DNA from: Escherichia coli
Lineage (GTDB): Bacteria; Pseudomonadota; Gammaproteobacteria; Enterobacterales; Enterobacteriaceae
NCBI RefSeq assembly: GCF_001677475.2
Contig: NZ_CP015229.1
DNA: 64,000 bases
Direction: 5' to 3' (one strand)
This document shows, piece by piece, positions 39,801 through 42,800 of the stretch (positions within the stretch are counted from its first letter, which is position 1; the number at the start of each line of letters is the position of its first letter). A program made the position numbers.

Positions 39801-42800
39801 TGTTGTAACTGGGCGGCAGCTTTCTCTAGTTCATTTTTGTCAACAAATTGCTGCGCAAGTTCCAAAGAAGCCAGCGCACCATAAGTATTTTTATTTTCAG
39901 CAGCAAATTTTTCCGCCGCCGGAATGCTATCCGGTTTGCCTTCGCTCACTGCGGTAACCGCATTTTGATAGGCAAGAGAAGCGGAGCGTGCAGAATCAAC
40001 CTGATGGCTGTTCCAGTAGCGCCAGCCAATCAGTGCGCCAACGCCCAAAATCACCCCAACAGCCAGTGCTTTGCCATTTTCAGCAAAAAAGCGTTTAACC
40101 GCTTCAACCTGGTCGTTTTCGTTCTCGTAAATTTCCACGCTGTCCTTCTCCTTCCTTAACCCAGTAACGTGCGCAAATGCGCGGCTACGCTATCCTGCGC
40201 AACTGCCGTTTGCTCACCAGAGCGCAAATCCTTCACTACTGCTGTGCCGTTAGCCACTTCAGACTCACCCAGCACCACAGCAACGCGGGCACCCCATTTA
40301 TCAGCACGGGCAAACTGTTTCTTGAAGTTGCCGCCGCCGTGGTTGGCCATCAGTTTCACGCCCGGTAATTCATCACGCAGACGCTCTGCTAATGCCATAG
40401 CCGCAGATTGTGTATCAGCACCTGAAGCCACCAGGTATATATCGACAACAGGATCGGCTTTAAATTCCGGATTAACGGCCTGTACTAACAATACAAGACG
40501 TTCGAGGCCCATCGCAAAACCGACTGCCGGTGTAGCACGACCACCCAGTTGTTCCACCAGACCGTCATAACGACCACCTGCACACACGGTGCCCTGGGAA
40601 CCGAGGCTGTTAGTCACCCACTCGAAAACGGTACGGTTATAGTAATCCAGACCACGCACCAGACGCTGGTTGACGGTGTAAGCGATTCCCGCACTCTCAA
40701 GCAGTTTGCACAGACCGGCAAAATGCTCACGAGATTCCTCGTCCAGATAATCGCCTAATGCCGGAGCGTCGTTGAGAAGCGCCTGCACTTCCGGATTTTT
40801 TGAATCCAGCACGCGCAGCGGGTTAGTGTACATGCGGCGTTTGCAGTCTTCGTCCAGCTTTTCTTTATGCTGCTCAAGGAATGCCACCAGCGCATCGCGG
40901 TAATTGGCGCGTGCTTCCAGCGAACCGATAGAATTCAGCTCAAGAGTTACGTGTTCGGAGATACCCAGCGCACGCCACCAGCGGGCGGTGAGCATAATCA
41001 GTTCAGCGTCGATATCCGGACCTTGCAGACCGAAAACTTCGCAGCCCAACTGATGGAACTGACGATAACGCCCTTTCTGCGGACGCTCGTGACGGAACAT
41101 CGGCCCGATATACCACAGACGCTGTTCCTGATTGTACAGAAGACCATGCTCGATGCCGGCGCGTACACAGCCCGCCGTCCCTTCAGGGCGCAGAGTCAGG
41201 CTGTCGCCATTGCGATCCTCAAAGGTGTACATCTCTTTTTCAACCACGTCGGTGACTTCACCAATCGCACGTTTGAATAGCGGGGTCTGCTCTACAATCG
41301 GCAAGCGGATTTCACTGTAACCGTAGCTGCCGAGCACGTTTTTCAGTGTGCCTTCAATGCGCTGCCAGATGGCCGTTTCGCCAGGCAGGTAATCGTTCAT
41401 GCCGCGAATGGCTTGAATGTTTTTTGCCACGTTTATTCTCTTTCTGAATATAAAAATGAACCCTCAACGCTTCCCTCAATGTTTCGGGAGCCATGCGGGT
41501 TCAATCATACACGGGAAGCGAGGCGCTTCCCATCACGTTATTATTTTTCAACCTGCTGAACGTCAATTCGACGCGCTTCGTCCAGCTGACTGGCTTTCGC
41601 ACGAATGCGTGCTTCCAGCTGGTCGATCATATCGTTGTTGTCCAGACGGTCTTTGCGCACGCCATCTTCATAGAGGCCGCTTTTCTTGTTGCCACCGGTG
41701 ACGCCGAGTGTAGAAACCAGCGCCTCACCTGGGCCATTCACCACGCAGCCGATAATCGAAACGTCCATCGGAGTGATGATATCTTCCAGGCGTTGCTCCA
41801 GCGCGTTAACCGTACCGATAACATCAAATTCCTGACGCGAACAGGTCGGGCAGGCGATGAAGTTGATCCCTCGCGAACGGATACGCAGCGATTTCAAAAT
41901 ATCGAAACCGACTTTGATCTCTTCAACCGGATCGGCCGCCAGCGATACGCGCAGCGTGTCGCCGATGCCTTCAGACAGCAGCAGACCTAAACCAATGGCG
42001 GATTTAACCGCCCCGCTGCGCGCACCACCCGCTTCGGTGATCCCCAGATGCAGCGGCTGATCGATCTGTTTTGCCAGCAAACGATAAGACTCAACAGCGA
42101 GGAAGACGTCTGACGCTTTCACGCTGACTTTGAACTGATCGAAGTTCAGGCGATCGAGATGATCAACATGACGCATGGCGGATTCCAGCAACGCCTGCGG
42201 CGTCGGTTCGCCATACTTTTCTTGCAGATCTTTTTCCAGCGATCCGGCGTTAACGCCAATACGGATCGGAATGTTTTTATCGCGCGCACAGTCAACCACT
42301 ATGCGAATACGCTCTTCATTACCGATATTGCCAGGGTTAATACGCAGACAATCGACGCCGTATTCCGCTACTTTCAGCGCAATGCGATAGTCGAAGTGGA
42401 TGTCAGCCACCAGCGGCACGTTAACCCGCTGTTTGATGAGTTTGAACGCTTCTGCCGCGTCCATCGTCGGTACGGAGACACGGACGATATCAGCGCCAAC
42501 GCGTTCCAGCGCCTTGATTTGATTGACCGTTGCTTCGACGTCTGTCGTACGCGTATTGGTCATGGACTGTACGGCGATGGGAGCACCATCGCCAATCGGC
42601 ACATTCCCAACGTAAATACGTGTTGATTTTCTACGTTGAATTGGAGCCTGGTTATGCATGAAAAATCTCCCGCGTTACCCGTCTGTTACTGCGCCGCTGA
42701 TTGTTCGGCATTGAGGGTCAGACGCGCAACCTGGTTAGTTCTGATAAAACGACTCAGATCGACAGGTTTCCCTTGATACTGGATCTGTACTGCGGCTGGC

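Follow-up and report, generated by a model that had tools for sequence, protein, structure and literature searches.

The DNA that encodes the small RNA SroE in E. coli doubles as the promoter and transcription start site of the essential gene hisS. Published start-site maps place both the hisS promoter and its +1 inside SroE, and the conservation of SroE tracks the promoter elements. We suggest, partly from observation and partly by inference, that the RNA itself is probably the tail of the ispG mRNA, and that the terminator hairpin at its end is interlocked with the hisS promoter.

The sroE locus, its fold and its conservation

The window analysed here is a stretch of 64,000 nt from Escherichia coli (contig NZ_CP015229.1). 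On its minus strand, ispG (41541–42659) lies upstream of hisS (40156–41430, GTG start), both delimited by the ORF list and the K-12 annotation, and the two are separated by a gap of 110 nt (41431–41540, minus strand) that runs from the ispG stop codon to the hisS GTG. The first-pass annotation had described two minus-strand hairpins in this spacer, which the ORF list and RNAfold confirm, and had named it as the site of a candidate SroE. That proposal was borne out: the Rfam covariance model RF00371 (sroE) matches over its full length (model positions 1–92 of 92) at 41450–41541 on the minus strand, scoring 116.6 bits where the gathering score is 51 (E = 1.8e-28, computed over the whole 64-kb window), and all 92 nt of SroE, as well as the entire 110-nt spacer, are 100% identical to K-12. 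In K-12 MG1655 the ncRNA sroE (b4761) occupies 2640595–2640686 (-), flanked by hisS and ispG at offsets equal to those in the window. Sequence, spacer, strand and two-hairpin consensus are the same and we found no difference, as befits the same gene in another strain. We are virtually certain that the locus is the known E. coli sroE, a long-standing entry of Rfam and of the K-12 annotation; as an annotation call, a copy identical to the long-catalogued SroE carries little weight. A single sroE copy per chromosome is present in 5425 of 5426 complete E. coli genomes. Across the 5 kb around SroE, 59 positions differ from K-12.

The ends of the RNA had been described as not definable from sequence alone; they can now be given by homology to the annotation. 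The 5′ end, 41541, coincides with the third base of the ispG stop codon; the 3′ end, 41450, comes just past a U-run. Published work bears on a discrete RNA of about 90 nt in the cell: SroE was detected in every growth condition examined (PMC12266141), and it has been measured by RIF-seq and in Hfq studies. The last 19 nt of the spacer (41449–41431) are outside SroE and form the remaining part of the hisS 5′ leader, in which invariant or near-invariant alignment columns mark a conserved AGAGAA...AACGUG ribosome-binding region.

RNAfold of 41541–41450 (minus strand) returns two hairpins with a minimum free energy of -40.1 kcal/mol, compared with -23.65±3.48 kcal/mol for 200 dinucleotide shuffles of SroE, none of which folds as well (0/200; z = -4.73). 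Both helices of the two-hairpin RF00371 consensus structure are reproduced in this fold. Hairpin 1 (41513–41531) has an 8-bp stem, GGGAAGCG/CGCUUCCC, closed by a 3-nt loop, CCU. Hairpin 2 (41457–41503) has a base stem UGAACCC/GGGUUCA and a variable, imperfectly paired interior, and is followed directly on its 3′ side by UUUUU (41452–41456) and then AU, which marks the annotated 3′ end of SroE. Hairpin 2 with its U-run looks like an intrinsic terminator. A generic terminator scan of 41000–42900 did not call it, because its loop is longer than the 8 nt that the scan allows.

The RF00371 family was found in the same ispG-hisS position in 19 other Enterobacteriaceae genomes, and is confined to Enterobacteriaceae. 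Across 22 aligned Enterobacteriaceae species, 96.9% of stem cells are paired, as opposed to 32–58% after the partner columns are slid. In hairpin 1, seven of the eight stem pairs are either invariant or changed on both sides together; one such double change, from G-C to U-A, is found in L024. The loop and the pair that closes it are variable. The base stem of hairpin 2 is paired in 98% of cells, and the hairpin with its U-run is kept in 22/22 orthologs, each with a different interior; the T-run is present in all 22 species. The Enterobacter counterpart of hairpin 2, in the same position, is reduced to a simple 7-bp terminator, and the scan calls this homolog terminator-like. Since the stems are nearly invariant, covariation is too sparse for a statistical proof of them, and their support comes from the fact that pairing has been retained while the interior sequence was replaced. 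The invariant columns of the alignment comprise the hairpin 1 stem, GUGUAUGAUUGAACCC, the 3′ arm and the U-run, with loop 1 and the interior of hairpin 2 being variable or deleted.

The hisS promoter and start site within SroE

Two independent maps based on 5′-triphosphate ends agree on a single base as the start of the hisS-yfgM-bamB mRNA, a G at NC_000913.3 position 2640641, which corresponds to 41496 (minus strand) in the window. The start-site table of Kim et al. 2012 gives it as NC_000913.2 position 2638663 (-), with a listed upstream sequence ending in ...GTGTATGATTGAACCCG, and SMRT-Cappable-seq gives it as 2640641 on the reverse strand, for the operon b2514|b2513|b2512 (hisS-yfgM-bamB). 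Seven nucleotides upstream of the mapped start is TATGAT (41504–41509, minus strand), the -10 hexamer, located in the single-stranded stretch that links the two hairpins; it precedes hairpin 2 in all 23 Enterobacteriaceae loci recovered, L006 and L054 included. A mapped 5′-triphosphate start together with a -10 hexamer at the right distance identifies a sigma-70 promoter of hisS. The hexamer at the -35 position, TGGGAA (41532–41527, minus strand, coordinates counted back from the mapped start), is a poor, weak -35. By the same count, the promoter DNA from -35 to -17 is that of hairpin 1, and the 5′ arm of hairpin 2 (41503–41497) sits between the -10 hexamer and +1. The discriminator, CCC, is GC-rich. 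Further upstream, the A/T-rich stretch TGAAAAATAATAA (41538–41550, minus strand; -54 to -42 of the hisS start) extends over the ispG stop codon; the region is A-rich in most orthologs, and is a possible UP-element-like sequence. The invariant positions of SroE fall on promoter elements and on the bases that pair with them. A generic promoter scan of 41000–42900 found no promoter in E. coli, and is uninformative for this architecture.

The same start-site sets bear on the origin of the RNA. SroE could be an independent primary transcript, made from a promoter of its own in the 3′ end of ispG, rather than a processed mRNA tail. A TTGACG at 41566–41561 and the A/T-rich AATAAT/TAATAA around 41545–41538 do resemble promoter hexamers. 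However, the better -10 candidate leaves a spacing of 15 nt and the -10 candidate available otherwise matches at just 3 of 6 positions, while a start directed by hexamers of the TTGACG/AATAAT type would fall near 41533, not 41541. The promoter scan finds nothing in the ispG 3′ region, and a start at 41541 or close by is absent from both start-site sets, whose entries here are 41496 and one inside ispG (NC_000913.2 position 2638974). We consider an independent SroE promoter very improbable.

A second alternative places SroE in the leader of hisS, as a cis-regulatory element or attenuator that senses tRNA-His or histidine, following the T-box-like idea of PMC3632133. In Enterobacteriaceae the element is always immediately 5′ of hisS, a hairpin with a U-run precedes the hisS start codon, and SroE was classed as 'required' in Salmonella transposon (TraDIS) data (PMC3632133). 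Like the T-box and other attenuator leaders of aminoacyl-tRNA synthetase genes, SroE is structured and has a hairpin resembling a terminator directly upstream of the synthetase gene. Unlike in such leaders, half of the SroE structure lies upstream of the hisS start: hisS mRNAs initiated at 41496 lack hairpin 1 and the 5′ arm of hairpin 2, and the hisS leader folded from +1 contains no terminator. A conserved sensing core and a covariance-model match are missing as well. The interior of hairpin 2 is unconserved, to the point of deletion in Enterobacter, and there is therefore no specifier or antiterminator platform; even at E <= 10 there was no match to an Rfam T-box or His-leader model and no tRNA-like element (ARAGORN). 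The apparent essentiality of SroE in transposon screens, including the TraDIS requirement, is accounted for by the hisS promoter itself, because the region holds the promoter of an essential gene. We conclude that a T-box-like leader role is not supported, and consider a sensing function in the hisS leader very improbable; at most, the element may modulate the transcripts that read through from ispG into hisS. A leader peptide was also considered and rejected: a 46-codon ORF begins with an AUG at 41494, 2 nt past the start site, and this AUG is absent outside Escherichia and Citrobacter. The hisS attenuators of Naville & Gautheret 2010 are Firmicutes T-boxes and leader peptides, and do not concern this locus.

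SroE as a probable tail of the ispG mRNA

In the reading that we favour, the 92-nt RNA would be the 3′ tail of the ispG mRNA, running from the stop codon through the very stable hairpin 1 to hairpin 2 and its U-run, and the latter two would serve as an intrinsic terminator that leaks. Processing, for instance by RNase E, would probably make the 5′ end, and the lack of a primary start at 41541 in the two start-site sets is consistent with this. The hisS promoter occupies the same DNA, with the A/T-rich stretch, a weak -35 that falls within the 5′ arm of hairpin 1, the TATGAT of the linker and +1 at 41496. As the 5′ arm of hairpin 2 ends immediately before +1, mRNAs that start at the promoter would be unable to form the terminator, and would continue into hisS-yfgM-bamB; when folded from +1, the hisS leader has no stem abutting the U-run. 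Transcripts arriving from ispG, on the other hand, would include the whole hairpin, and would either end at it, yielding SroE, or read through. Because promoter and terminator share the same DNA, the conservation of SroE would largely be that of a compound cis element made up of both.

Read-through transcripts do exist, as ispG-hisS-yfgM and rodZ-ispG-hisS are both reported by SMRT-Cappable-seq. No ispG-only transcript is listed in that dataset, and the Adams 2021 Term-seq tables list no 3′ end at 2640570–2640619. Given that no ispG-only transcript is listed, hairpin 2 may be a weak terminator in vivo, or SroE may acquire its 3′ end in another way.

CpxQ, SroC and SdhX are 3′UTR-derived sRNAs that use the terminator of the parental mRNA. 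SroE resembles them in starting at or near the upstream stop codon, in ending at a hairpin with a U-run, in being co-oriented with the mRNA and in its reported association with Hfq. It differs from them in having no known validated target or clearly separate conserved seed, in containing the promoter and start of the downstream gene, and in the absence of its 3′ end from the Adams 2021 Term-seq tables.

An alternative is that SroE is a genuine trans-acting, Hfq-associated RNA, either a base-pairing sRNA derived from a 3′UTR or a sponge or partner of SdsR, and is conserved for that function. Hfq RIL-seq in nitrogen-starved E. coli recovered sdsR:::sroE chimeras, up to 70 of them at N-24. SroE is grouped with Hfq-associated RNAs (PMC12539622), and its level is down 1.75-fold in a Klebsiella hfq mutant. 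Its 3′ end, a hairpin and then a U-run, is sRNA-like, the invariant single-stranded linker GUGUAUGAUU could act as a seed, and weak binding to ligB mRNA in vitro has been reported. Against this, nine of ten predicted targets were unbound in published tests and the tenth was bound weakly, overexpression gave no biofilm, motility or fimbriae phenotype, and expression is constitutive. SroE carries no (ARN)x Hfq motif and its U-run is just 5 nt long. The alignment contains no conserved seed that is clearly separate from other elements: the sole stretch that is both unpaired and invariant falls on the hisS -10 hexamer and discriminator.

Pairing between SdsR and SroE fares no better as an explanation of the chimeras. 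The best local duplex (22 nt, -19.2 kcal/mol) is equalled by 25% of random genomic windows, and the whole-molecule duplex energy is no better than that of 59% of random windows, which leaves the RIL-seq chimera unexplained. In our reading a possible trans-acting role, at which the chimeras and the Hfq association hint, is secondary, and we think it unlikely that SroE is such an RNA and has been conserved for that function.

Sister families and implications for sRNA catalogues

Searches with RF00371 at E <= 1, made to extend the sroE family beyond Enterobacteriaceae, gave no match in Rahnella, Serratia, Brenneria, Pectobacterium or Hafnia. The corresponding spacers of Yersiniaceae, Pectobacteriaceae and Hafniaceae are similar to that of E. 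coli in their two-hairpin plan, in the 3′ arm with its U-run (GGGUUCAUUUUU) and in having a promoter interlocked with hairpin 2. They differ in where this promoter is found. In these three families a GAACCCGA...UCGGGUUC hairpin with a U-run surrounds a near-consensus TTGAAN-18-TATAAT, whose -10 hexamer comes just ahead of the 3′ arm, whereas in E. coli TATGAT stands in front of the hairpin.

We tentatively advance a stronger version of the interlocked tail, as something slightly short of an even chance: the conservation of the SroE sequence may owe nothing to a trans-acting RNA, the interlock of terminator and promoter being what was kept across Enterobacterales and the 92-nt RNA being a stable by-product. 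The promoter would then have moved relative to the hairpin, which it precedes in Enterobacteriaceae and lies within in the three other families; we put this step forward with the same reserve, as part of the whole.

Listings of SroE still have it as an 'uncharacterized sRNA', it has also been proposed as a riboregulator of hisS, and we see in its dual use of DNA a caution for sRNA catalogues. As the hisS promoter lies inside SroE, experiments that delete or overexpress sroE must be designed around that promoter.

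SroE in the ispG-hisS spacer

The spacer between ispG (41541..42659, minus strand) and hisS (40156..41430, minus strand, GTG start) is exactly 110 nt long (41431-41540), as the first-pass annotation had stated, and the candidate SroE RNA which it placed there with undefined ends is real, correctly identified and already known. A scan of the whole 64-kb window against Rfam 15 found RF00371 (sroE) at 41450-41541 (minus strand) over the full model (positions 1-92 of 92; score 116.6 bits, gathering score 51, E = 1.8e-28). In K-12 MG1655 the annotated ncRNA sroE (b4761, 2640595..2640686, minus strand) lies between hisS and ispG and overlaps the final base of the ispG stop codon, with offsets equal to those in the window, so that by homology the ends are predicted at 41541 (5') and 41450 (3'). 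The 92 nt and the entire spacer are identical to K-12; the flanking 5 kb contain 59 differences, and the window therefore represents an E. coli strain other than K-12. By megablast, 5425 of 5426 complete E. coli genomes carry a single, chromosomal copy of the spacer. The same Rfam scan gave full-length matches to ryfA RNA (55693-55978, plus strand, 263.7 bits) and to iscRS, the iscR stability element (63234-63343, minus strand, 118.8 bits).

The two minus-strand hairpins noticed earlier both form when 41541..41450 (minus strand) is folded as RNA, at an MFE of -40.1 kcal/mol, compared with -23.65±3.48 kcal/mol for dinucleotide shuffles (z = -4.73; 0/200 as stable as the native sequence). Hairpin 1 (41531-41513, minus strand) reads GGGAAGCG-CCU-CGCUUCCC. 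Hairpin 2 (41503-41457, minus strand) has the base stem UGAACCC/GGGUUCA and an imperfectly paired interior, and is followed directly by the U-run UUUUU (41456-41452, minus strand).

Published treatments leave SroE as an uncharacterized sRNA. It is present under all growth conditions tested, with no significant change among them (PMC12266141), overexpressing it left biofilm formation, motility and fimbriae unaffected (PMC4606813), and it is down 1.75-fold in a Klebsiella hfq mutant. We regard a role as a trans-acting Hfq sRNA as rather unlikely. SroE is among the Hfq-associated sRNAs of nitrogen-starved cells (PMC12539622), and RIL-seq by the same group recorded chimeras with SdsR as its one interaction (sdsR:::sroE, PMC10954441 supplement), but the computed SdsR-SroE pairing is at chance level, and target tests in the INTERFACE study were negative or weak (9 of 10 predicted targets without in vitro binding, ligB weakly bound; PMC6172242). 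Furthermore, the sole conserved unpaired stretch of SroE overlaps the -10 region of the hisS promoter.

The hisS promoter inside SroE

Kim et al. 2012 mapped a start site at NC_000913.2 2638663 (minus strand), 45 nt into sroE, with an upstream sequence ending ...CCCGTGTATGATTGAACCCG, and SMRT-Cappable-seq lists 2640641 (NC_000913.3, reverse strand; confirmed as a TSS by the column header) for the operon hisS-yfgM-bamB. The two are one base, window 41496, directly 3' of the hairpin 2 5' arm and 7 nt downstream of TATGAT (41509-41504), a hexamer found in 23/23 Enterobacteriaceae loci recovered. Hairpin 1 would thus span -35 to -17 of the hisS promoter, TGGGAA would occupy its -35 position, and the discriminator, between the -10 hexamer and +1, would be the arm GAACCC; the ispG stop region TGAAAAATAATAA, at -54 to -42, may have an UP-like role. 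A consensus scan did not find the E. coli hisS promoter because its -35 is poor. Published start sites also lie at 41807 (minus strand; NC_000913.2 2638974), within ispG and 377 nt upstream of hisS, and at 42836 (minus strand; NC_000913.3 2641981), at the rodZ 3' end, the latter yielding ispG-hisS-yfgM transcripts.

That SroE is a primary transcript of its own promoter inside ispG appears very improbable, as only poor hexamers occur there and two TSS data sets contain no mapped start for it. Barquist et al., who found SroE 'required' in Salmonella TraDIS, put forward the idea of a T-box-like leader that controls hisS (PMC3632133). This is not supported: half the structure lies upstream of the hisS +1, the hairpin 2 interior is unconserved, and no T-box, His-leader or tRNA-like match was obtained even at E <= 10. 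Nor is the ORF starting at 41494 conserved. This 46-codon ORF (41354-41494, minus strand), whose AUG lies 2 nt past the hisS start site and which overlaps hisS out of frame, is probably fortuitous, since its AUG is found only in Escherichia and Citrobacter in the alignment.

Conservation in Enterobacteriaceae

Enterobacterales, Orbaceae and Vibrionaceae were sampled with one genome per species, and in all 80 hisS loci recovered ispG is immediately upstream of hisS, with a spacer of 13-50 nt in most Vibrionaceae/Orbaceae and ~80-150 nt in most Enterobacterales. The hisS start codon is GTG in nearly all, from Escherichia to Vibrio. Rfam sroE matches at or above the gathering score are confined to Enterobacteriaceae sensu stricto (19 loci); two more loci score at the borderline (51.0 and 50.4 bits), and two further ones are interrupted by repeat insertions. 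ERIC/IRU-like inserts lie in hairpin 1 of Pseudocitrobacter faecalis and hairpin 2 of Klebsiella sp. BIGb0407 (loci L006:2315-2501, L054:2260-2501), the insert in L054 being overlapped by sub-threshold Rfam matches to V_AS5, Ysr49 and isrH; inserts of a similar kind make the spacer longer in Photorhabdus caribbeanensis and Yersinia thracica (L048, L075).

In 22 aligned Enterobacteriaceae spacers, the stem of hairpin 1, the linker GUGUAUGAUUGAACCC, GGGUU of the 3' arm, the U-run and the ribosome-binding region of hisS are invariant, and loop 1 and the whole hairpin 2 interior vary in sequence and length. Every ortholog retains a hairpin and U-run with an interior of its own; in Enterobacter the interior is entirely absent, and a simple terminator scan finds this version terminator-like. 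Pairing in the two base stems holds for 96.9% of cells versus 32-58% with partner columns slid (22 species); double changes occur in two pairs only, and classical covariation is sparse.

A probable ispG terminator interlocked with the hisS promoter

Most likely, the locus combines an ispG terminator with an interlocked hisS promoter, the sole mildly new aspect here and one for which we found no earlier statement in the literature examined. Transcripts derived from ispG, carrying both hairpin 2 arms and the U-run, could terminate at the U-run or read through, and SroE, 92 nt long, would result from such termination combined with processing of the 5' end at the ispG stop codon. Read-through transcripts (ispG-hisS-yfgM and rodZ-ispG-hisS) are on record in SMRT-Cappable-seq. 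Transcripts starting at 41496 begin past the 5' arm; when folded from +1, the hisS leader forms the inner stem only, with no stem abutting the U-run, so that they would escape termination and continue into hisS. Invariant rather than covarying stem arms would be expected because one of them belongs to the promoter and its partner has to stay complementary to it, and insertions in 'SroE' would not be tolerated because they strike the promoter of the essential hisS.

Termination at hairpin 2 may be inefficient in vivo, as no 3' end falls at 2640570-2640619 in the Term-seq tables of Adams et al. 2021, which do record ends inside hisS and inside ispG, and an ispG-only transcript is absent from the SMRT-Cappable-seq list. 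This fits the irregular hairpin 2 stem and the 5-nt U-run. Strong published Term-seq 3' ends at 41289 and 41138 (minus strand; NC_000913.3 2640434 and 2640283) lie inside hisS, within its first 300 coding nt, the score of 2640283 being among the higher in that stretch of the table.

Beyond Enterobacteriaceae, other Enterobacterales have a near-consensus TTGAAN-18-TATAAT promoter 31-38 nt ahead of the hisS GTG (loci L022, L025-L029, L034, L036, L040, L041, L044-L053 and L055; spacer upstream of position 2501), and the Rfam sroE model has 0 matches among these spacers. In several genera the promoter is enclosed by a GAACCCGA...UCGGGUUC hairpin with a U-run, and in three Yersinia species (L030, L032, L075) an extra ~60-nt palindromic block, GUUGAUGUUGC...GCAACAUCAAG, between promoter and hisS start lengthens the predicted leader to about 96-98 nt. 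Rahnella, Serratia, Pectobacterium, Brenneria, Dickeya, Edwardsiella and Hafnia have two hairpins with the same 3' arm and U-run (GGGUUCAUUUUU), and their promoter lies within hairpin 2, its -10 hexamer just before the 3' arm; with a start ~7 nt past TATAAT, promoter-derived transcripts would again lack the complete hairpin. Morganellaceae have lost hairpin 2, and their promoter comes after hairpin 1, which is a clear terminator. By this comparison, the promoter seems to have shifted position between lineages, with the interlocked design apparently maintained.
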